A stretch of DNA of 50,898 nucleotides from an uncultured Bacteroidales bacterium (GCA_903887815.1 CAISRK010000188.1:1-50898), one strand, 5' to 3'; counted from the first letter of the stretch, positions 24,225 to 50,898 are shown. The notes: a model not told the origin generated them from the letters alone. Program-made: numbers and translations.

Positions 24225-24236
24225 GCAAACGATTGC
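24225..24236. promoter_or_regulatory. Near-perfect 12-bp palindrome GCAAaCGaTTGC (candidate repressor operator)
   Basis: 10 of 12 positions are self-complementary. It lies about 40 bp upstream of the TAnnTTTG box of the GH13 gene, where a -33 element would sit. Confidence 0.3.
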
Positions 24237-24273
24237 GTATAAATCACTTTGTTTTATATGGATTCTTTTCTTA

Positions 24274-24281
24274 TATCTTTG
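24274..24281 (+). promoter_or_regulatory. Bacteroidota -7 promoter box TATCTTTG (TAnnTTTG consensus)
   Basis: Exact consensus match 22 nt upstream of the ATG at 24303. The same octamer occurs upstream of ileS. Confidence 0.5.
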
Positions 24282-24302
24282 CGGAATCAAAACCGCCGAA
24301 CA

Positions 24303-26147: not shown

Positions 26148-26153
26148 AACGCA

Positions 26154-26338
26154 GGAAGTCGAAAGTCGGAAGACGGAAGCCAGAAGACTAAAGTTGGAAG
26201 CCCGAAGGTGGAAAGCAGAAGGAGGAAGGCTTTCAGTATCAGAAGAAAACTATAATTCGAAGGACAAGAAAAGTTGTTGGAAAGCTTAATTTTATTCTCC
26301 GTGAATCTTCGGGCTCCGGACTTCCGGTTTCCGACCTC
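26154..26338. repeat. Purine-word (gaag/gtcgga) long imperfect inverted repeat
   Basis: The left arm ggaagtcgaaagtcggaagacggaagcc...ggaagcccgaagg (26154-26208) pairs imperfectly with the right arm cttcgggctccggacttccggtttccgacctc (26307-26338). Confidence 0.6.
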
Positions 26339-26369
26339 TTGATCTAACTAATAATAAGAATAATTTAAG

Positions 26370-29198: not shown

Positions 29199-29287
29199 AC
29201 CAAGAAACTACCTGCTTGTTAATACAACCTTTAAACGCGCGAAGCGCATTGAACCTTTAAAACCTGAAACCCATCAAACAAAAACAT

Positions 29288-30670
29288 ATGAAATCCTTAA
29301 CCAAATCCTTCCTTATGCTTTGCTGCATATCCTTTCTGTTTACAGCCTGCAAAACAAAACCAGCCGGTCCTGAAGTAAAGGCCAATTACCCTGAATGGGG
29401 TAAAAACGCTGTCATCTATGAAGTAAATGTACGCCAGTACACACCCGAGGGTACATTTAAAGCTTTTGAAGCCAATCTTCCGCGCCTGAAAGAACTGGGC
29501 GTCGATATCCTCTGGATTATGCCTATTAACCCGATCGGAATTGTAGATCGTAAAATCCCGGATGGCTATAAAGAAAGCCTGGGCAGCTATTATTCGGTAA
29601 AAGACTATAAAGCGATAAATCCCGAATTTGGAACTGAATCCGATTTTAAAGCCCTTGTTACAAAAGCACACGAAATGGGATTTAAAGTAATTGTCGATTG
29701 GGTGGCTAACCATTCGTCGCGCGACAACGCCTGGATCACCGAACACCCCGATTGGTATGTGCAGGACAGCACAGGCAAGATCCTTGCCCCTTTCGACTGG
29801 ACCGATGTAGCCAAACTCAATTATAAAAATAATGATATGCGTGCCGCTATGATCGACGCCATGAAATACTGGGTCGTGAATTGCGATATCGATGGTTTTC
29901 GCTGTGATGTAGCCGGCGAAGTTCCGGTTGATTTCTGGGATACCTGCCGTGTAGAACTCGAAAAAGTTAAACCCATGTTTATGCTTGCCGAAAACGAAGA
30001 TCATCCTGAGCTTTGCGCAAAAGCCTTTGATATGAATTATGGCTGGACAATGCATAGCACTATGCATAAAGTTGCACAGGGTAAGGATTCTGTTGTACAA
30101 ATCATCCGCCAGGTAATAAAAATGGATTCCATCTTACCAAAAAATGCCTTCCAGATGAATTTTATAACCAACCATGATGAAAACTCATGGAATGGAACTG
30201 CAGCTGAAAAATTTGGCGCAGGCGAAAATGCATTTGCAGTTCTTACCTACACCCTGCCAGGGATGCCTCTGATCTACAGCGGACAGGAAGCCGGTCTCAA
30301 CAAACGCCTCAGATTCTTTACCAAGGACACCATCGACTTCAAAGTTGCCGATTATTCGTCTTTCTACAAAACACTCAATGCCTTGAAACACGGCAGCGAA
30401 GCTCTCTGGAATCCTCCTTATGGCGGTACTTTCGAGCAAGTAAAAAATACCGAGCCAACAAAAGTCCTGTCGTTTATCCGCGAAAAAGGCAACAGCCGCG
30501 TGGTAGTTATCGTCAACCTGAGTAATGAAAAGGTAACAGTTAATCTGAAAGGGGATAAAGCCGATGGCGAGTATAAAGATGTTTTCTCAAATGCCGATTT
30601 CACCATCAACAGCACCAACCTCAATCTGACCCTAGAACCATGGGGTTATTGGGTAATGGAGAAGAAATAA
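29288..30670 (+). CDS. GH13 alpha-amylase lipoprotein
   Basis: 460 aa. Lipobox SFLFTAC. GH13 regions I DWVANH, II DGFRCDVAG, III MLAENED, IV FITNHDEN. Confidence 0.85.
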   Translation: MKSLTKSFLMLCCISFLFTACKTKPAGPEVKANYPEWGKNAVIYEVNVRQYTPEGTFKAFEANLPRLKELGVDILWIMPINPIGIVDRKIPDGYKESLGSYYSVKDYKAINPEFGTESDFKALVTKAHEMGFKVIVDWVANHSSRDNAWITEHPDWYVQDSTGKILAPFDWTDVAKLNYKNNDMRAAMIDAMKYWVVNCDIDGFRCDVAGEVPVDFWDTCRVELEKVKPMFMLAENEDHPELCAKAFDMNYGWTMHSTMHKVAQGKDSVVQIIRQVIKMDSILPKNAFQMNFITNHDENSWNGTAAEKFGAGENAFAVLTYTLPGMPLIYSGQEAGLNKRLRFFTKDTIDFKVADYSSFYKTLNALKHGSEALWNPPYGGTFEQVKNTEPTKVLSFIREKGNSRVVVIVNLSNEKVTVNLKGDKADGEYKDVFSNADFTINSTNLNLTLEPWGYWVMEKK

Positions 30671-35791: not shown

Positions 35792-37324
<1,533 letters not shown>

Positions 37325-37434
37325 ATTTATGTCGGATGTTGGATGTCGAAAGTTTGAAGTAAGGATTTCCTTAAATAAACCATTGGTAAATTTCCGCTAA
37401 TCCCCAAACCCTAACCCCAAAAGCCTAAACAATA

Positions 37435-37671
37435 ATGAGAATAGAAATAGTAACCCCTGATACTACAATTTACGAAGGTGAAGTTTCGCTGGCCCAACTG
37501 CCTGGTCTCGATGGTTCGTTCGAAATACTGAACAACCATGCTGCCATGATTGCTGCCCTGAAAAAAGGAAAAGTGAAGGTAATTGACGACAAGAAGGCGA
37601 CTTTGATTTTTGACATCAACGGCGGGGTTGCCGAAATACTGAAAAACCGGATACTTGTACTTGCAGAATAA
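37435..37671 (+). CDS. atpC: F1 ATP synthase subunit epsilon (short form, beta-sandwich domain only)
   Basis: 78 aa. The opening MRIEIVTPDTTIYEGEVSLAQLPGLDGSFEILNNHAAMIAAL is typical of the epsilon N-terminal domain. Positioned after atpD. Confidence 0.85.
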   Translation: MRIEIVTPDTTIYEGEVSLAQLPGLDGSFEILNNHAAMIAALKKGKVKVIDDKKATLIFDINGGVAEILKNRILVLAE

Positions 37672-37690
37672 GCATTTAATTATACGTATT

Positions 37691-37720
37691 GAGAAAGAGG
37701 ACAGCCGTTCTCTTTTTTTT
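37691..37720 (+). terminator. Candidate intrinsic terminator after atpC
   Basis: Interrupted stem gagaa...gg / cc..ttctc followed by T8 (37713-37720). Confidence 0.4.
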
Positions 37721-37736
37721 GCATTCATGGGAAAAA

Positions 37737-38336
37737 TCAGAACCCGGCATTTACATAATCCCCAGGCGAATTGATATTTATAAGAATTCTGTTGTCAGCG
37801 ATTTCGGCCCTCTTAATAGTGAATGTTCTGAGAAAATTGTCGATCCTGATATCATCCAAGCGGGTTGTTCCAACCTCCTTCACAACCTGGGAATTGATAA
37901 GCACCGGGTGACCCGATTTACCTTGAGATACGGGTATGATCACATTTGCCTCCTTCCTAAAAGCAAATAAATCATGAAGTATGTTTTCCGTTGTAAATGG
38001 ATTGTCAATATTTTGAAAAAAACAGTAATTCCCCGGTTTAATCGTCTGAATACCTGTTTGTAATGAACAGAACCGCCCCAGTTCAGGTTTTGGATTTATC
38101 ACCAGCAAAACCTTTTCGGATAAATCCGGTTTTACCTCTTCGAGCCTCTGGTATAGCTCTTTACTCACAACAACTACAACCAGGCTAAGACCTGCTTTCA
38201 AATACGTATCCGTAATTTGTTCAATGAAGGTAGTTTTCTTATCAAATTCCAATAAGGCCTTATGCATGCCCATACGCTCCGAACTTCCGGCCGAAAGAAC
38301 GATGCACGAGGTTTGTTGGAATAATTCTCTGTCCAT
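37737..38336 (-). CDS. mocA: MobA-like nucleotidyltransferase, MocA/YgfJ-type molybdenum cofactor cytidylyltransferase
   Basis: 199 aa. CIVLSAGSSERMGMHKALL (NTP-binding loop), INPKPELGRFCS, KSGHPVL. The C-terminal NINSPGDY parallels DIDTPDDF of E. coli MocA as I recall it. Confidence 0.7.
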   Translation of the reverse strand: MDRELFQQTSCIVLSAGSSERMGMHKALLEFDKKTTFIEQITDTYLKAGLSLVVVVVSKELYQRLEEVKPDLSEKVLLVINPKPELGRFCSLQTGIQTIKPGNYCFFQNIDNPFTTENILHDLFAFRKEANVIIPVSQGKSGHPVLINSQVVKEVGTTRLDDIRIDNFLRTFTIKRAEIADNRILININSPGDYVNAGF

Positions 38337-38398
38337 TTTAATTATTTGCTACTTTTACAAAAGTATAGAAAATGCCTCAGGTGGGCCATACACATAGT

Positions 38399-38434
38399 GT
38401 CTAGAGTGCCTAAAATGTCTAGAGTGCCTAGAGT
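38399..38434. repeat. ctagagtgcc-word repeat, upstream flank of four-helix-bundle gene A
   Basis: gtctagagtgcctaaaatgtctagagtgcctagagt. Related direct copies lie at 38907-38951 and an inverted copy at 39073-39113. Confidence 0.8.
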
Positions 38435-38532
38435 TTAAACTTATGAATGTTTTTTTGCTCATTATCCTGCAAATACCACTTTAGGCACTATAATATCCAA
38501 AATACTCGTACCATGATTTGAAACTCATTTTA

Positions 38533-38892
38533 ATGGAAAACAAAGAATTTGCAAAGCAGCTGGAAAACAGGACCAAACAGTTTGCAATTCGTATTATCAG
38601 GCTTTCTGTTTCCTTACCCACAACGCAGGAAGGAAAAGTAATAAAAAACCAGTTGACCAAATCGGGAACCAGCATTGGTGCAAATTACAGGGAAGCAAAC
38701 CGGTCGAGAAGCAAGGCTGATTTTTACAATAAAATCCAAATCTGCGAAAGTGAGGCAGGTGAGACTGTCTATTGGCTTGAACTTATTTCAGATTTTAACT
38801 GGGTAGATATTAAGGATGGGAATTCACTACTAACAGAAGCAAATGAACTACTTGCTATTTTTACTGCAATAAGTAAAAACCTGAAGCCATAG
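38533..38892 (+). CDS. Four-helix-bundle protein (23S rRNA intervening-sequence protein family)
   Basis: 119 aa from the ATG at 38533 (the ORF-track start at 38518 is TTG). Family signature QLTKSGTSIGANYREANRSRSKADFYNKIQICESEAGETVYWLEL. Confidence 0.85.
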   Translation: MENKEFAKQLENRTKQFAIRIIRLSVSLPTTQEGKVIKNQLTKSGTSIGANYREANRSRSKADFYNKIQICESEAGETVYWLELISDFNWVDIKDGNSLLTEANELLAIFTAISKNLKP

Positions 38893-38906
38893 ATTAGCAT
38901 ACTGCA

Positions 38907-38951
38907 CTTAAGAGCCTAAAATGCCTTGAGTGCCAAGAGTGCCTAAAATGC
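38907..38951. repeat. ctagagtgcc-word repeat, downstream direct copy
   Basis: cttaagagcctaaaatgccttgagtgccaagagtgcctaaaatgc. Confidence 0.75.
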
Positions 38952-39072
38952 ATTTAGTTGATAAAAAATGCTTCTTGCCATACAATTACAATACAAATCA
39001 AGCTTTAATACCGTACAAAATCAAATAAATCTGTTTTACCCGAAATACTCTTAATACCCGAATAACAAAATC

Positions 39073-39113
39073 ACTCTAGACACTCTAGGCACTCTAGGGC
39101 ACTCGAGGCACTC
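39073..39113. repeat. ctagagtgcc-word repeat, inverted copy
   Basis: actctagacactctaggcactctagggcactcgaggcactc. It contains a 16-nt exact complement of 38418-38433. Confidence 0.8.
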
Positions 39114-39132
39114 AATAAATCAACTCTTCCCA

Positions 39133-42100
39133 ATGATCCATTCCTCAGCATTTTCAACAGTATCGGCAAATAATCTATATAAACTTATTTCTAGTGAGTA
39201 CACTTCCCGAAAAGAAATCTTCGGCATCCCTGAAGCTTTGTTTTTCAATCCCACAAATCATGGAGAAATCTCCATGGAAATCTTCGGCAAACACCTTTAT
39301 TCTCCCCTTGGCGTTGCTGCCGGTCCGCATACGCAGATGGCACAGAATATTATTTCAGCCTGGCTTTGCGGGGCAAGCTATATTGAGCTGAAGACCGTTC
39401 AAACCCTCGATGAACTTGAAATTTCGAAACCCTGCATCGATATGCAGGACGAAGGCTACAACTGCGAATGGTCGCAGGAGCTGAAAATCCAGGAGTCGTT
39501 TGCCGAATACCTCAAAGCCTGGGTGATCATTCATATTTTGCAGCACAAATTCGGCTGGGACAAACTGCAAAAACGCGGGTTTGTGTTCAATATGAGTATT
39601 GGCTACAATTTCGAAGGCATTCAGAATGAGAATATGCAGTGGTTTCTGAAAAACATGTCCGGTTGCGGTGAGGCCAAAACTCAGATGATCAGTGAATTGC
39701 TGCCCCTTTATCCTGAACTCACCGGTATCGAAATTCCCGATTGTATTTCCGATAACATCACCCTCAGCACCATGCACGGCTGCCCGCCCGATGAAATCGA
39801 AAAAATCGGCCACTACCTGCTGAAGGAAAAGAAACTTCATACCCTGATCAAGCTAAACCCGACACTTCTGGGAAAGGATGAATTACGCGAAATCTTAAAT
39901 AATAAACTTCAGTTCAAAACTTCCGTTCCCGATATTGCTTTCGAACACGACCTGAAGTATGCCGATGCAACCGGAATTATTCAGCGGCTGCAGCAGACTG
40001 CCGACGCCGAAGGTTTGTTTTTTGGAGTCAAACTAACCAATACGCTCGAAAGCCTCAATCATAAAAACATATTCCCGGCTAAGGAGCAAATGATGTACAT
40101 GAGCGGCAGTGCTTTGCATCCCATAAGTGTAAACGTTGCCCGCAAACTGCAGAACGAATTCAATGGGAAACTCAATACTTCCTTTTCAGCCGGGGCCGAT
40201 TGCTTTAATATAAACGACCTTGTTGAAAGCGGCCTGAAACCGGTTACGGTTTGTTCCGATGTGCTCAAACCCGGCGGATACGGGAGGCTGCATCAATATG
40301 TGGAAGCCCTTTCGGGAAAAACCGTTTCCGGCAAAACGACTCCGCTCGAAAAATTAAATGCCTATGCTGTCGAAGTTCTGTCGAACGATGACTATAAACG
40401 CGACCCTTTCGTAAATAAAAGCATAAAATCCAGCCGTTCCTTAGGCTATTTCGACTGCATTCATGCTCCCTGTGTTGACGAATGCCCGACTAATCAGGAC
40501 ATTCCTGAGTATCTCTATCACACCTCGCAGGGTGATTTTCAGAAAGCCTTCGATGTGATCATGGTCAAAAACCCGTTCCCGAATGTGCTGGGAGTAGCCT
40601 GCGATCATTTGTGCCAGGCCAAATGCACACGCATCAATTACGAGCAGGTGCTGAAAATAAAGGAAGTGAAACGCTTTGTTGCTGAAAAAGGATTTGAAGC
40701 CGATATTAGTATAGCATCACCCAACGGAAAGAAAATTGCTATAATCGGTGCCGGTCCTTCGGGTTTGAGTTGCGCCTATTTCCTGAGGATGGGTGGTTTT
40801 GAAGTTGGGATTTTTGAAACAAAATCCATTCCCGGTGGCATGGTTTCGGAAGCCATTCCGGCTTTCCGCCTCAAAATGGAATCGATACAAAAAGACATTC
40901 AGCGCATCGAAAAGCTTGGAGTAAAAATCCACTACAATTCAAAGATTGATTCCGCCCGTTTTGCCGGCCTGCGCGCCCAATATGATTTTGTTTATATCGC
41001 TGCCGGCGCCCAGCATTTCAAAACCTTACAGATAGAAGGCGAAACGGCCTCCGGAGTTTTAAATGCATTTGAATTTCTTAAAAATGTTAAATACGGCAAA
41101 GCCGTTGAGCTGGGTAAAAACATCATCATCATCGGCGGCGGAAATACCGCCATGGATGTAGCCCGCACGGCTAAACGTACAGCGCAGCCCGGAAGCTCCG
41201 TAAAAGTGCTTTACCGCCGCACCCGGACCGAAATGCCTGCCGATGTGGATGAAATAAAAGCCCTGCTTGCCGAAGGGATTGAACTGCACGAGCTGCTGGC
41301 CCCGGAAAAGCTGGAGGTAAGCGAAAATAGGATTACTTCTGTTGTCTGTTCCAGGATGCAGCTGGTAAAAACCGATAAGGATTCGCGCTTAACCCCGGTG
41401 AAAATAGAAGGTGAATTTGTTGAATTTGCCGCCGACACTCTGATTCCCGCTCTCGGGCAGGAAATTGATATTGATTTTATTTCCTCCGCTGAACTTAAAA
41501 CCGAAAAAGGTTCATACCAAACCGGTATTCCAGGTGTATTTATCGGCGGCGATGCCATGCGGGGCGCGGCAACCATAGTGAAAGCGGTTGGCGACGGTCG
41601 CAAAGCAGCCATTCAGATCGGGGCAAAAGCAGGAATTGTGCTTCCTTCCGAAAAGCTTTCGTCCGACAAAAAACTATCGCATAGCGATCTGATTACTCGT
41701 AAATCGAAACGGGTAAAAATGGCGGAATTCTTTTTGGGCGATCACCCTGTGTTTACCGACGAATCAGCCATTCGTGAGGCTTCACGCTGCCTTTTCTGCG
41801 GCGATGCCTGCAGTGTTTGCGTTACGGTTTGCCCGAACCGCGCTAACCAATATTACCTTACCGAAGCGGCTGAAGTGCCGGTATGGAAAATTAATTTTGT
41901 GGATGGCGAAGTATCACCAATTATTAAAAGTCATCTGAAAATTGATCAGAAATACCAGGTGCTCAACGTGGCCGATTTTTGCAACGAATGCGGCAACTGC
42001 ACCACCTTCTGCCCGACCAAAGGATCACCTTTCAGCGACAAGCCACGTTTCTGCCTTACCGAAAAAAGCTTCAACCAGACCGGAAACGGGTTTTACCTGC

Positions 42101-42327
42101 AGAAAGAGGGATTGACCACAACCCTGTTTCACCGGAAAGGGGATAAAGTAATGCAGCTCACCAAAGGAGAAAATCTTTACAGGTATTCAGATGTGGAAGT
42201 TGAAGTCAATTTTGATTTAAACGATTTCCAGGTTGTTACAGTAAATAAACTGAATTATTCCGGGAGCGATATTGTCCTGGATAAAGCAGCCGAAATGAAA
42301 GTTCTTATCGATTCTGTTTCCTTTTAA
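39133..42327 (+). CDS. YgfK-like multidomain Fe-S flavoprotein: DHOD/DPD-like TIM barrel + GltD-like FAD/NAD(P) module + 2x[4Fe-4S] ferredoxin
   Basis: 1064 aa. N-terminal PLGVAAGPHT...ELKTVQ barrel. CIHAPCVDECPTNQDIPEY plus ACDHLCQAKCTR cluster motifs. Rossmann folds IAIIGAGPSGLSCAYFL and IIIIGGGNTAMDVART. C-terminal CLFCGDACSVCVTVCP and CNECGNCTTFCP. Domain order and length match E. coli YgfK as I recall it. Confidence 0.75.
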   Translation: MIHSSAFSTVSANNLYKLISSEYTSRKEIFGIPEALFFNPTNHGEISMEIFGKHLYSPLGVAAGPHTQMAQNIISAWLCGASYIELKTVQTLDELEISKPCIDMQDEGYNCEWSQELKIQESFAEYLKAWVIIHILQHKFGWDKLQKRGFVFNMSIGYNFEGIQNENMQWFLKNMSGCGEAKTQMISELLPLYPELTGIEIPDCISDNITLSTMHGCPPDEIEKIGHYLLKEKKLHTLIKLNPTLLGKDELREILNNKLQFKTSVPDIAFEHDLKYADATGIIQRLQQTADAEGLFFGVKLTNTLESLNHKNIFPAKEQMMYMSGSALHPISVNVARKLQNEFNGKLNTSFSAGADCFNINDLVESGLKPVTVCSDVLKPGGYGRLHQYVEALSGKTVSGKTTPLEKLNAYAVEVLSNDDYKRDPFVNKSIKSSRSLGYFDCIHAPCVDECPTNQDIPEYLYHTSQGDFQKAFDVIMVKNPFPNVLGVACDHLCQAKCTRINYEQVLKIKEVKRFVAEKGFEADISIASPNGKKIAIIGAGPSGLSCAYFLRMGGFEVGIFETKSIPGGMVSEAIPAFRLKMESIQKDIQRIEKLGVKIHYNSKIDSARFAGLRAQYDFVYIAAGAQHFKTLQIEGETASGVLNAFEFLKNVKYGKAVELGKNIIIIGGGNTAMDVARTAKRTAQPGSSVKVLYRRTRTEMPADVDEIKALLAEGIELHELLAPEKLEVSENRITSVVCSRMQLVKTDKDSRLTPVKIEGEFVEFAADTLIPALGQEIDIDFISSAELKTEKGSYQTGIPGVFIGGDAMRGAATIVKAVGDGRKAAIQIGAKAGIVLPSEKLSSDKKLSHSDLITRKSKRVKMAEFFLGDHPVFTDESAIREASRCLFCGDACSVCVTVCPNRANQYYLTEAAEVPVWKINFVDGEVSPIIKSHLKIDQKYQVLNVADFCNECGNCTTFCPTKGSPFSDKPRFCLTEKSFNQTGNGFYLQKEGLTTTLFHRKGDKVMQLTKGENLYRYSDVEVEVNFDLNDFQVVTVNKLNYSGSDIVLDKAAEMKVLIDSVSF

Positions 42328-42352
42328 TCAAAACTATACAACTGGAATAAAA

Positions 42353-43666
42353 ATGGTCTCAAGAAGAAGGTTTATCGAAAACGGTATTTTACTTGGCAGC
42401 GCCCTTGCATTATGGTCGTTCAAACCCCGTGCAATATCATTTTCAGGAGATGAATTTGATGTGCCGGAGGATCTTCAAAAGGAAATGTACAATAAGGCTC
42501 TGGCACTTGCCAAATTAAAAATACGGGGCGGAAGCGATCACCCGGTATTTAAGAAACCATTCCTGGATGCGGCATTTTCGGAAAGTATTTTTTACTGGGA
42601 CACCTGTTTCATTGCTACTTACGCGAAATACCATCAGGATGAGTTGCCCATAGCCAATGCGCTGGATAATTTCTACGACCGCATGGACACTGACGGCTAC
42701 ATCTGTCGCGAATTCAGGCCCGATGGCACCCCTTTCTGGCCGAAAAACCACCCGGTAAGCATGAATCCGCCCCTGCTGGCTTTTGCCGAACTGGAGCTGT
42801 TTTCAATTAAGAAAGACGAAAAACGCCTCGCAAAAGTTTATCCATTTCTGAAAAAGCATTTCCGGTACTGGGTTCAAACCTACCAGTGCCCCGATAAATT
42901 GTTTTTCAGCGATGCTTTCGGAAGTGGGATGGACAATATCGAACGCTATCCCTTTGGGTGGCAGGACGACAAACAGGGAATCCCCCTGGTAAATCTGCAC
43001 CCGGAAATTTTCTTATACGATTATCTAAGTTCAAAGTGGAACAAACAAGGCCGCTCCGTCGACGCTTCCGCGCAAATGTGTTTGTTTGCCGATAACATGG
43101 CTGCAATAGCAAAAATCATTAATCAAAACGCAGATATTAAATACTACACAGCGTTTCATGAAGAAGTTGCTTCTGCCATAAACCAGCACTGCTGGAACGA
43201 GGAAGATGGTTTTTACTACGACCTGGGCTATGGCAAGCAAATCAAACGGAAACATATCGGGATGTTCTGGACTTTGCTAGGGGGAGTTGTGCCCGAAAAT
43301 AAGCTGGATAAATTCCTTGCTCATCTTACCAATCCGGGCGAATTCCGGACTAAAATTCCGGTAGCTTCCTTCAGCGCCGACCAGCCGGAGTATAACCCCA
43401 AAGGCGCATACTGGCTGGGAAGCGTATGGGCACCAACTAATTATATGGTTTTACGCGGATTGTCGCTGTATGGGAAAAACGACTTAGCCCGCGAAATAGC
43501 CGAACAATATTACTGGGCTGTGGCCGAAGTGTATAAGGAAACCGGTACTTTCTGGGAAAATTATGCTCCGGCTGACATTTCGCAGGGAAACCAGGCCTCT
43601 AAAGATTTTTGCGGCTGGACTGCACTTGTCCCGATCACGGTTCTGAAAGAATATATCACGAAATAG
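42353..43666 (+). CDS. Tat-exported (alpha/alpha)6-barrel glycoside hydrolase, GH63/MGH1/trehalase-like
   Basis: 437 aa. Twin-arginine signal MVSRRRFIENGILLGSALA. Motifs FYWDTCF, GSGMDNIERYP, GAYWLGSVWAPTNYMVLRGLSLYG, FWENYAP. Confidence 0.65.
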   Translation: MVSRRRFIENGILLGSALALWSFKPRAISFSGDEFDVPEDLQKEMYNKALALAKLKIRGGSDHPVFKKPFLDAAFSESIFYWDTCFIATYAKYHQDELPIANALDNFYDRMDTDGYICREFRPDGTPFWPKNHPVSMNPPLLAFAELELFSIKKDEKRLAKVYPFLKKHFRYWVQTYQCPDKLFFSDAFGSGMDNIERYPFGWQDDKQGIPLVNLHPEIFLYDYLSSKWNKQGRSVDASAQMCLFADNMAAIAKIINQNADIKYYTAFHEEVASAINQHCWNEEDGFYYDLGYGKQIKRKHIGMFWTLLGGVVPENKLDKFLAHLTNPGEFRTKIPVASFSADQPEYNPKGAYWLGSVWAPTNYMVLRGLSLYGKNDLAREIAEQYYWAVAEVYKETGTFWENYAPADISQGNQASKDFCGWTALVPITVLKEYITK

Positions 43667-43785
43667 CACTCACGGGTAGAAATGACCGGGAAATTCAGTA
43701 AATTTATAGGAACAACCGAATCATAATCAAAAAAACAGAATTACTCATTCGTCATCGAAAAGACATACATTTAACAGAAATACAA

Positions 43786-45264
43786 ATGATTACTCTTACT
43801 GACAAAATTGTAAACCCTGCCACAAGGCAGAAAGCCATCGAACGCTTCCGCGAAAAAGGAATTGTGCTGCCCACATTTGCTCAAATGCGCAACCCCGAAC
43901 TGGTACCGGGAAAAATCAAAGATCAGCTTAAAACCATCGGATTATGGGACCTCCACCCGGCCAATCTTTTCCGTATTACCTGGAAAAACCAGCCTGTTGC
44001 CAAAGGCGGATTATATGGCGATGTAAATTACCTTGAAATTCCATCGGAACTCACCGGAGTACAAACACGAATAATTCTCCTGATCGGAAAATATTTCCCC
44101 ACCGGTGCCCATAAAGTAGGTGCTGCATACGGCTGCCTTGCACCGCGTATTATCACGGGCGAATTCGATCCTACCTACCACAAAGCAGTATGGCCTTCAA
44201 CAGGCAATTATTGCCGGGGCGGCGCCTTCGATTCGCATCTTATGGGCGTTACTGCAGTAGCTATTCTTCCGGAGGAAATGAGCAAAGAACGTTTTACCTG
44301 GCTTAAAGAAATTGGTGCCGAAGTAATTGCAACACCGGGCTGTGAATCGAATGTAAAAGAAATTTACGATAAATGCTGGGATATCCGACGCAACCGTAAG
44401 GACTGCGTGATTTTTAACCAGTTCGACGAATTCGGCAATCCCTGCTGGCACTATAATGTTACGGCCCCGGCTATCGAGGAAGTCTTCAATTCAGTAAAAT
44501 CGGCCAAAGGACAGCTGGCTGCATACGTTTCGGCAACCGGATCAGCAGGGACCATTGGCGCCGGCGACTACCTTAAAAAGCAATTCCCGCACATGAAAAT
44601 TGTTGCATCCGAAGCATTGCAATGCCCTACCCTGCTTAACAACGGGTTTGGCGGACACCGCATCGAAGGAATCGGCGACAAGCATGTTCCGTGGGTTCAC
44701 AATGCAAAAAACACTGATGTTGTTACCGCCATCGACGATGATGACTGCATGCGCATATTCCGTCTCTTCAACGAAGCTGAGGGAAAAAATTACCTGAAAA
44801 CCATAGGCATTAACCCTGAACTTATCAGTCAGCTCGGATTGCTCGGCATTTCGGGAGTTGCTAATATCCTTTCGGCAATTAAAACGGCAAAGTATTACGA
44901 AATGACGAGTGATGATGTTATCTTCAGTCTTGCAACCGACTCGGCAGAAATGTATGGTTCACGTCTTGAGGAACTGAACGCTGAAAAAGGCGCTTATTCT
45001 GAGCTGCAGGCTGCTAAGGATATGGAGAAATGCCTCATCGGACAGGCAACAGATCATCTGAAAGAACTTTCATACTACGATCGCAAAGCCATCCACAACC
45101 TAAAGTATTTCACCTGGATCGAACAGCAGGAAAAAAATCTTGAAGACCTGAACCAGCTTTGGAACGACCGCGATGTATGGACCCAGCAATTTCAGCAGGC
45201 CGAACGCTGGGATGAAATGATAAATGAATTTAATGAAGAAACCGGCGTACTGAAAAGTTTATAA
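43786..45264 (+). CDS. Fold-type-II PLP-dependent enzyme (cysteine synthase / Trp-synthase-beta superfamily), long form, function unknown
   Basis: 492 aa. Putative PLP-lysine region FPTGAHKVGAAYG. PSTGNYCRGGAFDSHLMGVTAVAILPE parallels SSGNTG...PE of CysK-type enzymes. Glycine-rich SATGSAGTIGAG loop. ~150-aa C-terminal extension. Confidence 0.6.
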   Translation: MITLTDKIVNPATRQKAIERFREKGIVLPTFAQMRNPELVPGKIKDQLKTIGLWDLHPANLFRITWKNQPVAKGGLYGDVNYLEIPSELTGVQTRIILLIGKYFPTGAHKVGAAYGCLAPRIITGEFDPTYHKAVWPSTGNYCRGGAFDSHLMGVTAVAILPEEMSKERFTWLKEIGAEVIATPGCESNVKEIYDKCWDIRRNRKDCVIFNQFDEFGNPCWHYNVTAPAIEEVFNSVKSAKGQLAAYVSATGSAGTIGAGDYLKKQFPHMKIVASEALQCPTLLNNGFGGHRIEGIGDKHVPWVHNAKNTDVVTAIDDDDCMRIFRLFNEAEGKNYLKTIGINPELISQLGLLGISGVANILSAIKTAKYYEMTSDDVIFSLATDSAEMYGSRLEELNAEKGAYSELQAAKDMEKCLIGQATDHLKELSYYDRKAIHNLKYFTWIEQQEKNLEDLNQLWNDRDVWTQQFQQAERWDEMINEFNEETGVLKSL

Positions 45265-45354
45265 AGTGTCTGCACACCTATTTCAGCTGTCTCACTCTTT
45301 ATCCAACCTGTAACCTTCACCTCAAAAGAATAAATTCTAACAGAGATTCTATTT

Positions 45355-46596
45355 ATGATTTCAAAATTCATATACCAATGCAACGACTGCGGCATACAAA
45401 TCCCTGCCGGGGAAATTGTGTACCTCTGTCCCGGATGCAGCGAAAAGCAGCAACCGGGCCAGCCACCGCTTGGCGTGCTTAAAATTGTGTACGATTATAA
45501 AGCATTAAGCGGTATAGTTTTCCAGGAACTTGAGGATAACAGGTTTCTTCAACTGTTGCCGGTACAGGACATGAAAAGTTTCCCGAATCTTCGTGTAGGG
45601 CACACTCCCTTATATGAAATCGATCAATTAAACGGCCATATCAATGATTTTGAACTCTATCTCAAAGACGACTCTCAAAATCCCACATTTTCATTTAAGG
45701 ACAGGGCTTCGGCCCTGGTTTCCGCTTTCGCGAAAGAAAACGGGATTGATACGATAGTTGCCGCTTCCACCGGTAATGCGGGCTCCTCCCTTGCTGGAAT
45801 ATGTGCTGCCCAGGGCCAGAAAGCGGTGATATTTGCACCTTCCACGGCACCTAAAGCAAAGCTTACCCAGATTATGATGTACGGCGCTACACTCGTTCCT
45901 GTTGCCGGGAACTACGACAGCGCCTTCGACCTGAGTATAGAAGCAACCCGTCGTTTTGGCTGGTACAACCGCAATACCGCTTTCAACCCACTAACGGTTG
46001 AAGGGAAAAAGACAGTTTCGTTCGAATTGTTCAGCCAGTTGCATGAAAATACCCCTGATTTTATTTTCGTTCCTGTTGGTGACGGGGTTATAATTTCAGG
46101 AGTGTACAAGGGTTTTGAGGATCTTCTCCTGCTTGGAATTATCGAAAAAATGCCTGTTATTATTGCGGTTCAGGCTGCCGGGAGCAGCAACCTGGTAGGT
46201 AATATCGGGAAATCGGAATTCCAGGTTACACCTTCACATACCATCGCCGACAGCATTTCGGTCGATATCCCGCGAAATTTCCACATGGCTGCGGATTACC
46301 TGACAAAATACCATGGGCAAACCGTAACTGTGAGTGATGATGAAATTATAAAAGCATCATCAATGCTGGCTAAAAATACAGGGATTTTTACCGAACCGGC
46401 TGCAGCTGCTGCATTTGCAGGATTTCTCGATTATAAAACCAGGAGTATGATTCCCAAAGGTTCCACTAACGTAGTTTTGCTTACCGGCAGCGGCCTGAAA
46501 GACCTTAGTGCTGTTCAAACACTCTTTGATATTCCACAGGCAGTTGCACCTGATATTGATTCAGTCGGGATGTTTTTAAAGGCTGCAGAGGTTTAG
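45355..46596 (+). CDS. Threonine-synthase-like fold-type-II PLP enzyme with N-terminal Cys4 zinc ribbon
   Basis: 413 aa. CNDCGIQIPAGEIVYLCPGC (CxxC-x13-CxxC), PLP-lysine motif PTFSFKDRAS, ASTGNAGSSLA, LLTGSGLKD. Confidence 0.7.
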   Translation: MISKFIYQCNDCGIQIPAGEIVYLCPGCSEKQQPGQPPLGVLKIVYDYKALSGIVFQELEDNRFLQLLPVQDMKSFPNLRVGHTPLYEIDQLNGHINDFELYLKDDSQNPTFSFKDRASALVSAFAKENGIDTIVAASTGNAGSSLAGICAAQGQKAVIFAPSTAPKAKLTQIMMYGATLVPVAGNYDSAFDLSIEATRRFGWYNRNTAFNPLTVEGKKTVSFELFSQLHENTPDFIFVPVGDGVIISGVYKGFEDLLLLGIIEKMPVIIAVQAAGSSNLVGNIGKSEFQVTPSHTIADSISVDIPRNFHMAADYLTKYHGQTVTVSDDEIIKASSMLAKNTGIFTEPAAAAAFAGFLDYKTRSMIPKGSTNVVLLTGSGLKDLSAVQTLFDIPQAVAPDIDSVGMFLKAAEV

Positions 46597-46638
46597 TGTT
46601 TCAGAAATTGTTTTGCTAATTTGACAAATTAATATAAC

Positions 46639-47532
46639 ATGCGGGATCACACAAAACTTTACCGACTTTTCCTGCTATTATGGATTTTAACAGTTGTTTC
46701 TTTAAACGTCTCCGGCCAGCGGGATACCGTTTTGAAAGAGCCGGTTCAATGTCCTTCCGGTGAGTGGAAGCTGGTTTTCGCCGATGAGTTCGATGGGAAT
46801 TCACTCGACGGCAGCAAATGGTTAACCTGGTACCCCTTCACCGACGATGGTGGCGATAAATGCACATTTTGCCGCACTCATGGAAACGAAGGACAGATTT
46901 ACCGTGATGAAAACGCCGTGGTAAGCGAAGGCAGCCTGAAACTGATCGCCCGTAAGGAAACCGGGGAATGGATGGGAGAAACAAGGTCTTATTCGTCAGC
47001 TACGATCCATTCGGTTCAAAGGTTTGGTATGGGAAAATACGAAATACGCTGCCGCATACCTTCAGGAATGGGTTTCTGGCCTGCTTTCTGGATGTTCGGG
47101 CTTAAAGCCACCGAAATTGATGTTTTTGAAATCGGAACACAGAATCCCCGCCACCATCATGTGGCAATCCATAGCTGGAACACAAAAACAGACCTGGAAA
47201 AAGGGTATAACGGAACAAACCTGGCCGATGGATATCATATTTATACCATGGTTTGGGATACTAACTTTATTAGTATTGCTGTGGATGGAAATGAAGTATG
47301 GCGGGTTAGCCAGTATGCAAACAAACGTGGCCGCGTTGTTAAAAAATGCCCTGTAAAACCGGGGAAATACCAGCTTAATCCTACTTTCCCGCCTCAGGGC
47401 GAAATGCTTTCGGTGATTGCCGGGTTGGCTATCGGTACAAGCACGACCCCGTTCACCAAATCACCCGACGAAAAGACCGTTTTCCCCAACCAGATGGAAA
47501 TCGATTGGATCAGGATATACGAAATGAAATAA
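46639..47532 (+). CDS. Secreted GH16-family beta-glucanase-like hydrolase
   Basis: 297 aa with a signal peptide. LVFADEFDGNSLDGSKW, WPAFWMFG, catalytic ExDxxE as TEIDVFE. Confidence 0.8.
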   Translation: MRDHTKLYRLFLLLWILTVVSLNVSGQRDTVLKEPVQCPSGEWKLVFADEFDGNSLDGSKWLTWYPFTDDGGDKCTFCRTHGNEGQIYRDENAVVSEGSLKLIARKETGEWMGETRSYSSATIHSVQRFGMGKYEIRCRIPSGMGFWPAFWMFGLKATEIDVFEIGTQNPRHHHVAIHSWNTKTDLEKGYNGTNLADGYHIYTMVWDTNFISIAVDGNEVWRVSQYANKRGRVVKKCPVKPGKYQLNPTFPPQGEMLSVIAGLAIGTSTTPFTKSPDEKTVFPNQMEIDWIRIYEMK

Positions 47533-47560
47533 CAACTTTTGAAAAATCACTGCCAAAATC

Positions 47561-50113
47561 ATGGTGAAATTTATTTTAAACGGAGAAACAACCAGCTTCG
47601 AAGGAAATCCGGAGGTAACCCTTCTGAAATTTCTTAGAAATACGAAAAATATTACTTCCGTTAAAGACGGCTGCTCCTGCCAGGGCGCATGCGGTGCATG
47701 TATGGTAGAAATAAACGGCGAAGCAAAATTATCCTGTCTCACTCTGCTTAAAAACCTTGAAAATAAAACTGTAAATACACTCGAAGGCATTCCTGCATCC
47801 GTCAGGGATATTATCGCTAAAGCATTTGTCGAAAAGGGCGCAGTACAATGTGGTTTCTGCACTCCCGGGTTCCTGGCTCGGACCAATGTCCTTCTCCGGA
47901 AAAATCCTTCGCCAACGCTTGATGAAATCAAACAGGCCCTTACGTTAAATCTCTGCCGCTGTACAGGCTACGTAAAAATTATTGATGCCATTCATGAAGC
48001 TGCCCAACAACTGCATTCAGGCGGAAATTCCGCCGGATCCGATACTTCGGGCCATGTAGGAACTTCTTATCCAAAATACGAAGCCTATGAAATGGCTGTC
48101 GGCAAACGCCTGTTTGTGAATGACCTCAGGTTTGAAGGAATGCTTCATGCTGCCCTTTATTTTTCGGATCATGCGAAAGCAAAAGTTGTGGAAATTGATA
48201 TTCAGGAAGCGCTCAAACTTCAGGGAGTAACCCGGATTTTTACTGCCGATGATGTTCCCGGCAACCGTTTTGTCGGACTGATTTTGAACGACTGGCCACT
48301 GATGATCCGAACCGGTGAAACAACCCGTTATATCGGAGATGTGCTTGCCGGGGTAGTTGCCGAAACCGAAGAAATTGCACACGAAGCCGTTAAACTGATT
48401 AAAGTCACATACGAAGTTTACAAACCCGTAACCGATCCGCACGAAGCCATCAAACCAAGGGCATTGCAGGTGCATCCCGATCGCAACAACCTCCTGGAAA
48501 CCTGCAGGGTTTATCGCGGCGGGATAGCCGATGAGATTATTCTCGATTCAGCATTTACAGCAAAAGGCACTTACCAGACCCAGCGCATTGAACATGCATT
48601 CCTCGAAACCGAGGGTGCCGTAGCAATGCCCCTCGATGATGGAGTTCACCTGTATTCCAACGGGCAGGGCATTTATGTCGACCGGAAACAGGTTGCTTCG
48701 TTGCTTAACCTTCCGGAAGAAAAAGTCCGCGTTACTCTGGTATCGACCGGAGGCGGATTTGGAGGCAAGGAGGACATGACCGTGCAGGGACATGCGTCAC
48801 TTTTTGCATGGCACCTCAAAAAACCGGTTAAAGTGGTGCTTTCACGCGACGAATCAATCCGCATGCACCCTAAGCGGCATCCTGTTTATATGGAGATAAG
48901 CATTGGCTGTGATAAGGAAGGAAAACTCACCGGTTTGAAACTCTATGCAGTCGGCGATTCGGGAGCATACGCATCGGTCGGTACAAAAGTTATGGAACGT
49001 GTCGCCGGCCATGCCAGTGGGGCATATCATTTTCCATGTGTGAACCTCGAAGCACTCACTGTGTATACCAACAATATTCCAAGCGGCGCCATGCGTGGTT
49101 TCGGCGCCAACCAGGTTGCTTTTGCCCTGGAGGCCTGTATAGATGAACTTTGCAAACTTGGTGGTTTCGACCGCTGGCAGTTCCGCTACGATAATGCACT
49201 TTGCGAAGGCAAAATGACTGCTACCGGACAGGTACTTCACAAAGGTGTCGGAGTAAAAGATACCTTACTGGCTGTAAAACCGTTTTACGACAAAGCAAGG
49301 TTCAAAGGGCTCGCATGCGGAATCAAGAACAGCGGCGTCGGAAACGGGATGGCCGATTTCAGCGATGTGATTATCGAAATCATATCAGAAAACAAAGTTG
49401 TGCTGCATCACGGCTGGACCGAAATGGGCCAGGGTGTGCATACTATTGCAACGCAGGTTCTGCGAGAGGAAACCGGAATTCCTCCCGGAATTGTGGAGGT
49501 AATTGCAGATACAAGCGCAGGAATCACAACAGGAATGACCACATCATCGCGTGCCACCGCTTTGCTTGGGAATGCCATACTCGATGCTTCAATACAGATA
49601 CGAAATGACCTGAAATATCATAGCCTGGCGGAACTCGCAGGGAAGGTCTATAAGGGTAATTACACCTGCGACTGGACTACCAAACCCGGGGCCGATGTTA
49701 AGGAAATAATCACCCATTTTGCATATGGTTATGCCACTCAGCTGGTTGTACTCGACGAAAAAGGCAGAATCGAAACGGTATATGCCGCCCACGATGCCGG
49801 TAAAATTATGAATCCCATTATGTTCGAAGGACAGATCGAGGGAGCCGTTCATATGGGATTAGGATATGCGCTCACCGAAGATCTTCCGATGATTGACGGT
49901 CAGCTGGTCTCGGCAAAAATGCGTGATCTTAAAATTCTGAGGGCAAAAGATATGCCGCAAGTGGTTGTGCTGGGTGTAGAAGTGAAAGATCCGGTTGGAC
50001 CTTACGGAGCAAAAGGCCTTGGAGAAATCGGGCTGGTTCCCACTGCTGCGGCTGTTGCCAATGCCTTTTGTGATTTTGACGGCATCAGAAGGTTTAATTT
50101 ACCATTGAAATAA
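47561..50113 (+). CDS. Molybdenum hydroxylase of the xanthine dehydrogenase/aldehyde oxidoreductase family, MOP-type fusion (2x[2Fe-2S] + Moco domains, no FAD domain)
   Basis: 850 aa. DGCSCQGACGACMV and QCGFCTPGF...CRCTGY iron-sulfur motifs, a/b-hammerhead region, GGGFGGKED, C-terminal GAKGLGEIGLVP with the conserved catalytic Glu. Confidence 0.85.
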   Translation: MVKFILNGETTSFEGNPEVTLLKFLRNTKNITSVKDGCSCQGACGACMVEINGEAKLSCLTLLKNLENKTVNTLEGIPASVRDIIAKAFVEKGAVQCGFCTPGFLARTNVLLRKNPSPTLDEIKQALTLNLCRCTGYVKIIDAIHEAAQQLHSGGNSAGSDTSGHVGTSYPKYEAYEMAVGKRLFVNDLRFEGMLHAALYFSDHAKAKVVEIDIQEALKLQGVTRIFTADDVPGNRFVGLILNDWPLMIRTGETTRYIGDVLAGVVAETEEIAHEAVKLIKVTYEVYKPVTDPHEAIKPRALQVHPDRNNLLETCRVYRGGIADEIILDSAFTAKGTYQTQRIEHAFLETEGAVAMPLDDGVHLYSNGQGIYVDRKQVASLLNLPEEKVRVTLVSTGGGFGGKEDMTVQGHASLFAWHLKKPVKVVLSRDESIRMHPKRHPVYMEISIGCDKEGKLTGLKLYAVGDSGAYASVGTKVMERVAGHASGAYHFPCVNLEALTVYTNNIPSGAMRGFGANQVAFALEACIDELCKLGGFDRWQFRYDNALCEGKMTATGQVLHKGVGVKDTLLAVKPFYDKARFKGLACGIKNSGVGNGMADFSDVIIEIISENKVVLHHGWTEMGQGVHTIATQVLREETGIPPGIVEVIADTSAGITTGMTTSSRATALLGNAILDASIQIRNDLKYHSLAELAGKVYKGNYTCDWTTKPGADVKEIITHFAYGYATQLVVLDEKGRIETVYAAHDAGKIMNPIMFEGQIEGAVHMGLGYALTEDLPMIDGQLVSAKMRDLKILRAKDMPQVVVLGVEVKDPVGPYGAKGLGEIGLVPTAAAVANAFCDFDGIRRFNLPLK

Positions 50114-50176
50114 TTTACGAATGACTATTTACGAATGAACCTTACAAATCGTATCTTCCAAATCGTTAATCGTACC
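50114..50176. repeat. tacgaat/aatcgta-word repeat, upstream flank of four-helix-bundle gene B
   Basis: tttacgaatgactatttacgaatgaaccttacaaatcgtatcttccaaatcgttaatcgtacc. It is a direct repeat of 50616-50685. Confidence 0.8.
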
Positions 50177-50232
50177 TTTTATTTGTCTGAATGTTAGTTC
50201 TAATTGACTGTCAAACTTTGAATTAATGAATC

Positions 50233-50595
50233 ATGTACACTGAAGAATTAAAGAACAGGTTTAAAATGTTTGCAATTCATGTGGCTCTATTGATAAAAGA
50301 TATTCCTAAAAACACAATCAATATACCCTATTGCAACCAACTAATCAGGTCATCGAGTTCGCCAGGTGCTAATTACAGGGCAGCATGCAGAGCTAAATCA
50401 AGTGCTGACTTCATCAATAAACTTAAAATAGTTGAAGAAGAACTGGATGAATCTGTTTACTTTCTGGAACTCCTCCTTCATTTTAATCCAGAGTTTGCTG
50501 ATAATATTAATCTCTTAGTCAAAGAAGGGAATGAACTCCTTGCAATAACAGTTTCCTCCTTAAAAACCTCTAGAGAAAATCAAAACAGAAAATAA
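50233..50595 (+). CDS. Four-helix-bundle protein (23S rRNA intervening-sequence protein family), second copy
   Basis: 120 aa. QLIRSSSSPGANYRAACRAKSSADFINKLKIVEEELDESVYFLELL. Confidence 0.85.
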   Translation: MYTEELKNRFKMFAIHVALLIKDIPKNTINIPYCNQLIRSSSSPGANYRAACRAKSSADFINKLKIVEEELDESVYFLELLLHFNPEFADNINLLVKEGNELLAITVSSLKTSRENQNRK

Positions 50596-50615
50596 CAAGT
50601 ATTAAAATTCAAGAA

Positions 50616-50685
50616 TTTACGATGTACGAATGAAACTTTCAAATCGCATCTCCCCAATCGTAAATCGTACCTCGTAAATCGTACC
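50616..50685. repeat. tacgaat/aatcgta-word repeat, downstream flank of four-helix-bundle gene B
   Basis: tttacgatgtacgaatgaaactttcaaatcgcatctccccaatcgtaaatcgtacctcgtaaatcgtacc. Confidence 0.8.
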
Positions 50686-50702
50686 TAAATAAATTCACCC
50701 CA

Positions 50703-50898
50703 ATGTCCATACTCCTAACAAACGGAACCTACATTCACCCTGAAACCCTCGAATTCACAACTTCCGATATTTTAGTAGATGAAGGGCCGGATGGCAAAAT
50801 AAAATTTCTCCCCCCTGCTTCAGAAACTAAAAGTGACACAGAAATCGACTGCTCGGGAAAATACATTACCCAATCCTTTGTTTGTGGGCACCACCACG
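50703..50898 (+). CDS. Amidohydrolase-superfamily protein, SsnA/chlorohydrolase-like (5' fragment, runs off the window)
   Basis: My own translation from the ATG at 50703 gives MSILLTNGTYIHPETLEFTTSDILVDEGPDGKIKFLPPASETKSDTEIDCSGKYITQSFVCGHHH. This is the typical beta-sandwich N-terminus ending in the HxH metal-binding motif. It is not in the ORF track because there is no stop in the window. Confidence 0.65.
   Translation, partial: MSILLTNGTYIHPETLEFTTSDILVDEGPDGKIKFLPPASETKSDTEIDCSGKYITQSFVCGHHH

Follow-up and report, generated by a model that had tools for sequence, protein, structure and literature searches.

The window analysed here is a 50.9-kb stretch of DNA from an uncultured Bacteroidales bacterium (50,898 nucleotides at its full length), the last part of which, positions 37737-50898, holds ten genes, with the final gene cut by the window end. 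Judged from homology and gene order, this region is probably the upstream part, i.e., the front half, of a Lentimicrobiaceae operon for the reductive anaerobic breakdown of uric acid and other purines by the 2,8-dioxopurine pathway, in which a pair of pyridoxal 5′-phosphate (PLP) enzymes takes the place of YgeX and several inserted genes are passengers. An earlier note on this DNA had assigned the region to anaerobic purine or urate catabolism and likened it to the E. coli ygfJ-ygfK-ssnA-xdhD neighborhood. Both assignments are supported, and the open reading frames (ORFs) lie where the note had placed them and are of the kinds that it named. The real difference from the known pathway is that YgeX is absent and that two conserved PLP enzymes are present in the cluster. 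The interpretation given in the note is partly supported. The locus is read here as a variant of the known 2,8-dioxopurine pathway, carried by Bacteroidota and further anaerobes of the environment, in which two uncharacterised PLP enzymes would have displaced YgeX.

The 2,8-dioxopurine pathway was reconstituted biochemically in 2025 (10.1101/2025.05.19.654654; 10.1101/2025.04.24.650524), which has overtaken the description of the pathway as uncharacterised in the earlier note. Urate is converted to 2,8-dioxopurine by XdhD-YgfM in E. coli (10.1101/2025.05.19.654654) and, in C. sporogenes, by XdhAC (DOPDH), a selenium-dependent enzyme without flavin adenine dinucleotide (FAD) (10.1101/2025.04.24.650524), which consists solely of Fe–S and molybdenum (Mo) domains and makes no use of NAD(P)H. 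In the 2025 reconstitutions, YgfK reduces 2,8-dioxopurine, SsnA opens the ring to form ureidomethyl-hydantoin, and HyuA converts the latter to 2,3-diureidopropionate; YgeW (coupled to carbamate kinase) and YgeY strip the ureido groups, and YgeX converts 2,3-diaminopropionate to pyruvate and ammonia. The solution of this anaerobic urate pathway dates from as late as 2025 and is confined to Proteobacteria and Firmicutes. The SsnA similarity network reported by Li et al. (10.1101/2025.05.19.654654) covers six phyla, Bacteroidota not among them, and two supplementary files of Liu et al. 2025 (10.1101/2025.04.24.650524) contain no Bacteroidota, Bacteroidales or Lentimicrob- entry. A screen of human-gut isolates described urate consumption as "notably absent in Bacteroidetes", and a 2026 preprint reported that Prevotella copri uses urate without orthologues of any known gene; a literature search for Lentimicrobium together with uric acid returned nothing relevant. 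Genes of the pathway are found here in Bacteroidota of environmental origin (Lentimicrobiaceae and other Bacteroidales) and in several further anaerobic phyla. A pathway of current medical interest is thereby extended to phyla believed to lack it, and nothing is overturned.

Related loci, about 140 in all, were collected as 80 genome loci around YgfK homologues, 51 metagenome loci around HyuA of the Lentimicrobiaceae type and 7 further loci (L134-L140) around individual homologues, and genes were mapped in them by tblastn and by clustering of ORFs called from ATG to stop. One of these loci, L001, is a public European Nucleotide Archive contig which is identical to the window and reaches beyond its end. 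The source genome belongs to Bacteroidota, SusC/SusD pairs and type IX secretion system (T9SS) sorting domains being present in the window, and the nearest public genomes are metagenome-assembled genomes of Lentimicrobiaceae and other Bacteroidales, with YgfK identities of up to 92%. The cluster is also carried by metagenome-assembled genomes labelled Lentimicrobium sp. (L010, P0134) and by the complete Lentimicrobiaceae chromosome OY782677.1, in which it runs across the start of the record. The genes of the region are intact apart from the amidohydrolase gene at the window end. The core order, i.e., a divergent minus-strand MocA gene followed by YgfK-PLP492-PLP413-XDH-SsnA-(U214)-HyuA, in which XDH denotes the Mo hydroxylase, PLP492 and PLP413 the two PLP enzymes and U214 a 214-aa protein, is repeated in Lentimicrobiaceae and other Bacteroidales. 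Because the same core order recurs in dozens of genomes, it is not a chance arrangement. From YgfK onward, the plus-strand genes are separated by spacers of 25-152 bp, a spacing compatible with a single transcript. A scan for promoters and terminators gave counts no higher than in shuffled controls, which makes it uninformative, and an Rfam scan of 37000-50898 (E ≤ 1) revealed no riboswitch and no other RNA family.

The earlier note had proposed searches with profile hidden Markov models (HMMs) of the families in question, in which YgfK (TIGR03315) and the Mo enzyme (TIGR03311) score above cut-off (Table 1), whereas the MocA-like protein, the SsnA-like protein and the XdhD-type model TIGR03313 remain below. 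Over 1014 aa, the YgfK of the window shares 37% identity with its E. coli counterpart, and, by analogy with the function reported for YgfK (10.1101/2025.05.19.654654), it is predicted to be the 2,8-dioxopurine reductase that catalyzes the dearomatising step. The 850-aa Mo hydroxylase fails both the XdhD-type TIGR03313 (226 vs. 1102) and the generic aldehyde oxidoreductase NF045668 (440 vs. 1100), its nearest solved structure is that of Desulfovibrio MOP, and it shares only 25-29% identity with E. coli XdhD and XdhA. In these scans YgfK was thus not of the PreT/PreA type and the Mo enzyme not a generic aldehyde oxidoreductase, the two outcomes that the note had named as refuting. The Mo hydroxylase is predicted to be a DOPDH-type dehydroxylase converting urate to 2,8-dioxopurine: relatives carry a separate conventional xanthine dehydrogenase, and the FAD-less enzyme of the cluster is therefore, by elimination and by architecture, the candidate urate dehydroxylase. 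The lack of a YgfM-type FAD subunit, pointed out in the earlier note, holds for the window; the same lack is already on record for enzymes of Clostridium.

The family names of TIGR03315 and TIGR03314 reflect an older annotation, under which the locus would serve selenate reduction or selenium metabolism. These names are all that speaks for such a role, and they are older than the biochemical proof that YgfK and SsnA process 2,8-dioxopurine (10.1101/2025.05.19.654654). In addition, no selenium-handling gene occurs within the window, and a selenium locus is hardly credible.

The 199-aa MocA-like protein covers positions 1-187 of the 188 profile positions of TIGR03310 (MocA/YgfJ) with 95 bits, under the cut-off of 186; its top family is DVU_1551 (101 bits vs. 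a cut-off of 315), with MocA/YgfJ second and both under cut-off. A homologue lies divergently upstream of YgfK in 32 of the 80 related loci, and this conserved position beside ygfK supports a MocA-like role. The SsnA-like amidohydrolase is 421 aa long when complete (L001:13143-14408) and is 33.5% identical to E. coli SsnA. Wherever both exist, it follows the Mo hydroxylase, separated from it, if at all, by inserted cassettes or a short unrelated ORF, and it is the sole SsnA-like gene next to YgfK in these loci. It is predicted to be the ring-opening hydrolase that acts with YgfK. The whole SsnA-like clade falls below the SsnA cut-offs in every locus tested, across phyla (320-416 bits), i.e., the SsnA of these lineages is too divergent for the current HMM cut-offs. 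No solved structure was found for any relative of YgfK, SsnA or DOPDH.

A second type of SsnA beside YgfK had been suspected in other phyla. This candidate was ruled out, since the paralogue is an 8-oxoguanine deaminase (NF006055, 580-603 bits vs. a cut-off of 532, scored only for L051 and L066; the other 8-oxoguanine deaminase assignments were made by clustering). A gene of this family directly follows YgfK in Desulfobacterales and Neomarinimicrobiota (L047, L051, L066, L068, L074, L079, L080).

No YgfM, YgeW, YgeX, YgeY or HyuA gene is present within the 50.9-kb window. A lookup of the exact Mo hydroxylase protein returned five contigs, none of which extends past the 214-aa gene after SsnA, so that the downstream content had to be inferred from relatives. 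Where SsnA and U214 are 79-86% identical to those of the window's strain (e.g., L086, L088-L091, L095, L099), HyuA lies two genes past the position of the window end. The HyuA of the relatives is a TIGR02033 D-hydantoinase (494 bits vs. a cut-off of 393), and their YgeW and YgeY score 638 bits (cut-off 500) and 476 bits (cut-off 321), respectively. YgeY, YgeW and a conventional xanthine dehydrogenase are located 0.2-24 kb from the cluster in relatives. In L137, YgeY-YgeW lies 2 kb beyond HyuA and convergent with it. In L134, which is on the same 41.9-kb contig as the L015 cluster and about 24 kb away from it, YgeY-YgeW directly follows a xanthine dehydrogenase (TIGR02965, 1026 bits vs. 849.5). 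The whole set lies within about 22 kb in L138/L139, where XdhC-XdhA-XdhB-YgeY-YgeW is convergent with HyuA-SsnA-XDH-PLP413-PLP492-YgfK, with MocA divergent. XdhC-like genes occur next to the conventional xanthine dehydrogenase, as in L138/L139, or upstream of YgfK in Ignavibacteria. Because relatives carry hyuA, ygeW and ygeY just beyond the window end or nearby, their absence from the window is probably a window-edge effect. The earlier note, which had found none of ygeW, ygeX, ygeY and hyuA visible, was right about the window; for three of the four genes the absence would be due to the window edge. A look past position 50898, as proposed in the note, revealed HyuA, YgeW, YgeY and the conventional xanthine dehydrogenase in relatives; SelD, YqeB and YqeC were not seen in the Lentimicrobiaceae loci.

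In other phyla, the YgfK, XDH, SsnA and PLP genes stand beside YgeW, YgeY, HyuA, carbamate kinase, xanthine permease and 8-oxoguanine deaminase. These neighbors bear on whether the substrate of the cluster could be an N-heterocycle other than urate and 2,8-dioxopurine, e.g., a pterin, a pyrimidine or a different purine isomer. The low SsnA scores throughout the clade and the distance of the Mo enzyme from E. coli XdhD and XdhA, together with its lack of a segment of XdhD discussed below, would agree with a different substrate. However, YgfK exceeds its equivalog cut-off, and the co-located conventional xanthine dehydrogenase, xanthine permease, 8-oxoguanine deaminase, HyuA, YgeW (71-74% identical to that of E. 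coli), YgeY and carbamate kinase point to purines, so that another N-heterocycle is improbable as the substrate.

U214 (L001:14575-15219, just past the window end) is a conserved 214-aa protein between SsnA and HyuA in most Lentimicrobiaceae loci; it adjoins the XDH gene in the Ignavibacteriaceae locus L073, and RelE-like small ORFs stand in its place in L138. It has no Pfam or NCBIfam match, and its N-terminal third is hydrophobic. In L074, L075 and L077, two YgeW paralogues and a carbamate kinase are present without YgeY, which hints at a removal of both ureido groups by phosphorolysis in those organisms.

In the 80 loci and in the window, no YgeX homologue was detected (E ≤ 1e-20, at least 60% coverage), and PLP413 shows 23% identity to YgeX in a partial alignment only (196 of 398 residues). 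Instead, two fold-type-II PLP enzymes are encoded between YgfK and the Mo hydroxylase. PLP492 occurs in 36 of the 80 loci with 56-96% identity. When aligned with CysK, it retains the PLP lysine together with the Asn loop for the substrate and the Gly-rich loop for the phosphate, and it is far under the CysK and CysM cut-offs (TIGR01139, 115 vs. 351; TIGR01138, 48 vs. 394). It has about 200 residues beyond CysK, i.e., about 85 N-terminal and about 110 C-terminal helical residues. A Foldseek search of the PDB with its AlphaFold2 model (predicted local distance difference test, pLDDT, 79; predicted template modeling score, pTM, 0.85) returned CysK/CBS cores only (TMt ~0.75), and the N- and C-terminal extensions had no match. 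PLP413, which occurs in 31 of the 80 loci, has a CxxC...CxxC zinc ribbon at its N-terminus. Throughout the 31 orthologues examined, the Arg of the ThrC NPxR motif is replaced in NP(L/F/Y)T and the GNAGN loop by GDG(V/C)I; in the Thermus ThrC structures, this Arg and this loop bind the phosphate of O-phosphohomoserine. Both PLP492 and PLP413 keep the PLP lysine and the loops that hold the cofactor. Since the CysK cut-offs are failed and the ThrC signatures are replaced, neither protein resembles the biosynthetic enzyme after which it is named. A seeming fusion of PLP413 and XDH in L070, most likely produced by the ORF caller, was left out of account.

PLP492 and PLP413 are usually neighbors, and their range comprises Bacteroidota, Neomarinimicrobiota, Ignavibacteriaceae and Desulforhopalus. 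In Neomarinimicrobiota, the pair directly follows YgeY-YgeW or YgeW-YgeW-carbamate kinase. An ordinary threonine synthase and an ordinary cysteine synthase that happen to lie in the operon could account for the narrow pass of PLP413 in the thrC model TIGR00260 (Table 1) and for the public records, which label PLP492 just "pyridoxal-phosphate dependent enzyme" or "cysteine synthase". However, the linkage of both genes to pathway genes across these four groups, the low CysK score of PLP492 and the uniform loss of the presumed phosphate-binding residues in PLP413 make such a coincidence very unlikely. The most economical reading of the pair, from gene context and sequence, is a non-orthologous displacement of YgeX. 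The earlier note had listed the two fold-type-II PLP enzymes among several non-canonical features; they are indeed present and conserved, and together with the absence of YgeX they are what remains of these features, although the note had not singled them out.

The 2,8-dioxopurine pathway could also operate with a PLP pair that is not a simple YgeX replacement, e.g., with a racemase of a D-intermediate and a stereospecific lyase, or with a CysK-like enzyme that either splits urea off albizziin by elimination or feeds the C3 unit into a different amino acid. Two different enzymes stand where one YgeX suffices, and CysK-type enzymes typically catalyze β-replacement or β-elimination. Serine and aspartate racemases and O-ureido-serine synthase are among the matches of PLP413 to solved structures, the upstream hydantoinase is of the D-specific type (TIGR02033), and PLP492 and PLP413 are at times found apart from each other (L038, L062, L064 vs. 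L036, L072, L078). However, no racemase or urea-lyase site is identifiable in the PLP sequences, and YgeY accompanies the pair in many loci, so that YgeY need not be bypassed. We regard such a departure from the YgeX role as rather unlikely. A related and tentative proposal is that PLP492 and PLP413 represent two new activities that end the anaerobic urate pathway differently from YgeX, such as a racemase/lyase pair acting on D-2,3-diaminopropionate or a urea-releasing albizziin β-lyase. If true, this would be an unrecognised last module in a widespread environmental branch of the pathway (Bacteroidota, Neomarinimicrobiota, Ignavibacteriaceae and Desulfobacterales/Desulforhopalus). The two PLP families are, in any case, concrete candidates for new enzyme functions. 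Since the pathway of these lineages would not end with YgeX, they would be assigned wrongly in a survey that scores YgeX or takes every PF00291 protein for YgeX.

Returning to the reading with the PLP pair in the place of YgeX, a scheme may be proposed, all steps of which are inferred by homology. The FAD-less Fe–S/Mo hydroxylase would remove the C6 oxygen of urate to form 2,8-dioxopurine, and the divergent MocA-like gene would help to make its cytosine-dinucleotide molybdenum cofactor. YgfK would then reduce, and hence dearomatise, 2,8-dioxopurine, the SsnA-like amidohydrolase would open the ring, and the HyuA D-hydantoinase, presumably encoded just past the window, would open the hydantoin. 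The two carbamoyl groups would be removed by YgeW and YgeY, whose genes would lie, as they do in relatives, close by or at another place in the genome. Finally, the PLP pair may convert the C3 amino acid (2,3-diaminopropionate, or its ureido precursor albizziin) towards pyruvate and ammonia, which is the weakest step of the scheme. GH63, GH16 and the two four-helix-bundle (4HB) genes would be passengers in the intergenic spacers.

The closest known systems differ from the present cluster in different parts. The E. coli K-12 uricolytic cluster has the order ygeW-ygeX-ygeY-hyuA-yqeA ... mocA-ygfK-ssnA-ygfM-xdhD (Li et al. 2025, 10.1101/2025.05.19.654654). Shared with it are a MocA-like gene beside ygfK, a full-length YgfK and an SsnA-type amidohydrolase, and the HyuA, YgeW and YgeY of the relatives are 36-38%, 71-74% and 53-73% identical to those of E. 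coli, respectively. In contrast, the Mo enzyme of the window is of the FAD-less TIGR03311 type rather than XdhD plus YgfM (25% identity), two other PLP enzymes are present and YgeX is not, no yqeB or yqeC was seen, and the gene order differs, with unrelated genes inserted between the core genes. The pathway of C. sporogenes and C. difficile comprises XdhAC (DOPDH), YgfK or UacX, SsnA, HyuA, YgeW or UacY, YgeY and YgeX (Liu et al. 2025, 10.1101/2025.04.24.650524). It resembles the present one in the use of YgfK, SsnA and HyuA and in a first enzyme with Fe–S and Mo domains and no FAD domain, the likeness to XdhAC being drawn from its described architecture. However, it is found in a different phylum, YgeX is essential in it and absent here, and selenium dependence (SelD, YqeB/C) has been shown there. 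The third system is the selenium-dependent molybdenum hydroxylase neighborhood EF2563-EF2582 of E. faecalis (Haft & Self 2008, PMC2276186). It likewise combines a single Mo hydroxylase (EF_2570) with YgfK, SsnA, YgeW, YgeY and HyuA homologues, but it also contains YgeX (EF_2579), SelD, YqeB and YqeC, none of which was seen here. We take EF_2570 to be the founding member of TIGR03311, the family matched by the Mo enzyme of the window.

Several points weigh against the assignment to the 2,8-dioxopurine pathway. E. coli XdhD has an insertion bearing E606 that has been proposed to direct it to 2,8-dioxopurine. The Mo hydroxylase of the window lacks this insertion, so that only its architecture and gene context speak for its regiospecificity. 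The 421-aa amidohydrolase has SsnA as its best family, yet its score is under the cut-offs (NF005540, 378 vs. 444; TIGR03314, 336 vs. 455.5), and the MocA-like protein is under its curated cut-off as well. Two PLP enzymes are present where YgeX alone suffices elsewhere. HyuA, YgeW and YgeY are seen only in relatives, and the contigs of this strain stop short of them. Neither the 50.9-kb window nor the Lentimicrobiaceae loci showed SelD, YqeB or YqeC, genes that go with the pathway in gut strains, and no purine permease is present in the window, whereas related loci of other phyla do have xanthine permeases.

Table 1. Genes and cassettes of the region, with positions counted from the first nucleotide of the window
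Feature	Position	Strand	Evidence
MobA/MocA-like molybdenum-cofactor nucleotidyltransferase, 199 aa	37737-38336	-	PF12804, 83 bits; divergent from operon
Cassette 1 with four-helix-bundle gene 38533-38892	38396-39098	+	TIGR02436, 93 bits
YgfK, Fe–S flavoprotein, 1064 aa	39133-42327	+	TIGR03315, 924 bits > cut-off 835, full-length match
GH63/MGH1-like glycoside hydrolase	42353-43666	+	PF22422 and PF03200
PLP492, CysK/CBS-fold PALP (fold-type II) enzyme, 492 aa, conserved core gene	43786-45264	+	PALP domain
PLP413, ThrC-like PALP (fold-type II) enzyme, 413 aa, conserved core gene	45355-46596	+	TIGR00260, 186.6 bits vs. cut-off 167.1, narrow pass
GH16 glycoside hydrolase	46639-47532	+	PF00722; hydrophobic, signal-like N-terminus (by eye)
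Fused 2Fe-2S/molybdopterin hydroxylase without FAD domain, 850 aa	47561-50113	+	TIGR03311, 900 bits > cut-off 830
Cassette 2 with four-helix-bundle gene 50266-50595	50113-50679	+	TIGR02436, 60 bits
SsnA-like amidohydrolase, first 65 codons	50703-50898	+	HxH motif GHHH at window end

The glycoside hydrolases and four-helix-bundle genes, which had been counted earlier among the non-canonical contents of the pathway, turned out to be lineage-specific insertions found in few lineages. Among the 36 YgfK loci that bear PLP492, GH63 is present only in L018 besides the window-identical L001, and GH16 occurs only in L001, L018, L006 and L088; in loci without GH16, the gap between PLP413 and XDH is 0-7 bp. 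The same spacers are occupied elsewhere by a Bro-N protein, a VTT/DedA-like membrane-protein pair, a 3-keto-disaccharide hydrolase with a Gfo/Idh/MocA oxidoreductase, a CarboxypepD_reg protein, RelE-like small ORFs or PD-(D/E)XK "PDDEXK_3" genes. Because few lineages have them and other lineages carry different inserts, GH63, GH16 and both 4HB genes are passengers rather than pathway components.

The N-terminus of GH63 (MVSRRRF...) resembles a twin-arginine signal when judged by eye. GH63 and GH16, both apparently exported, thus stand between cytoplasmic purine-catabolic genes with spacers of 25-119 bp. In L018 (10312-14501), a double 3-keto-disaccharide hydrolase and a Gfo/Idh/MocA oxidoreductase accompany the carbohydrate enzymes.

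Each of the two 4HB genes belongs to PF05635, named "23S rRNA intervening sequence protein", and is part of a cassette of about 500 bp. Cassette 1, which most relatives lack, is bounded by arrays of the 9-nt tandem unit AGTGCCTAG, with direct repeats at 38396-38439 and 38902-38963 and inverted arms at 38401-38426 and 39072-39097 that are 92% complementary. In its minimum-energy RNA fold, the flanks pair around the gene (z = -3.4). Cassette 2 has a 54-nt direct repeat, the copies of which (50124-50177 and 50619-50672) share 85% identity where chance would yield 0 matches, and inverted arms (50113-50137 and 50655-50679) made of the 7-nt unit TACGAAT/ATTCGTA, and its flanks likewise pair around the gene in the minimum-energy fold (z = -0.6). 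By analogy, this layout resembles that of stem-bounded rRNA intervening sequences, here situated in what would be an mRNA spacer. The spacer between XDH and SsnA contains a 4HB gene or a 275-aa Bro-N-domain gene in L002, L006, L008, L009, L010, L011, L013, L015, L016 and L019 (e.g., L013:18800-19404), the Bro-N gene being degraded in L002. The flanks of this spacer, read in L002, L010 and L013, carry arrays such as (ACGAATG)n on one side and repeated 7-mers, CATTCGT or AATCGTA, on the other. An insertion hot spot within the operon, or a site at which cassettes are exchanged, seems to lie here.

Upstream of the region, the window carries the housekeeping genes ileS, a dksA-like gene, lspA, atpD and atpC. 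A possible peptide-utilisation locus lies at 134-19220, with two Peptidase_S51 (cyanophycinase/dipeptidase E family) proteins that have T9SS sorting tails, a DcuC-type carrier, a FecR-type anti-sigma factor, a SusC/SusD pair, M14 and M28 peptidases and an enolase-superfamily (MR/MLE) protein. It is followed at 19463-30670 by a starch/alpha-glucan utilisation locus, ordinary for Bacteroidota, which contains SusC, SusD, GH13 cyclomaltodextrinase-like, GH31 and GH13 SusG-like proteins.

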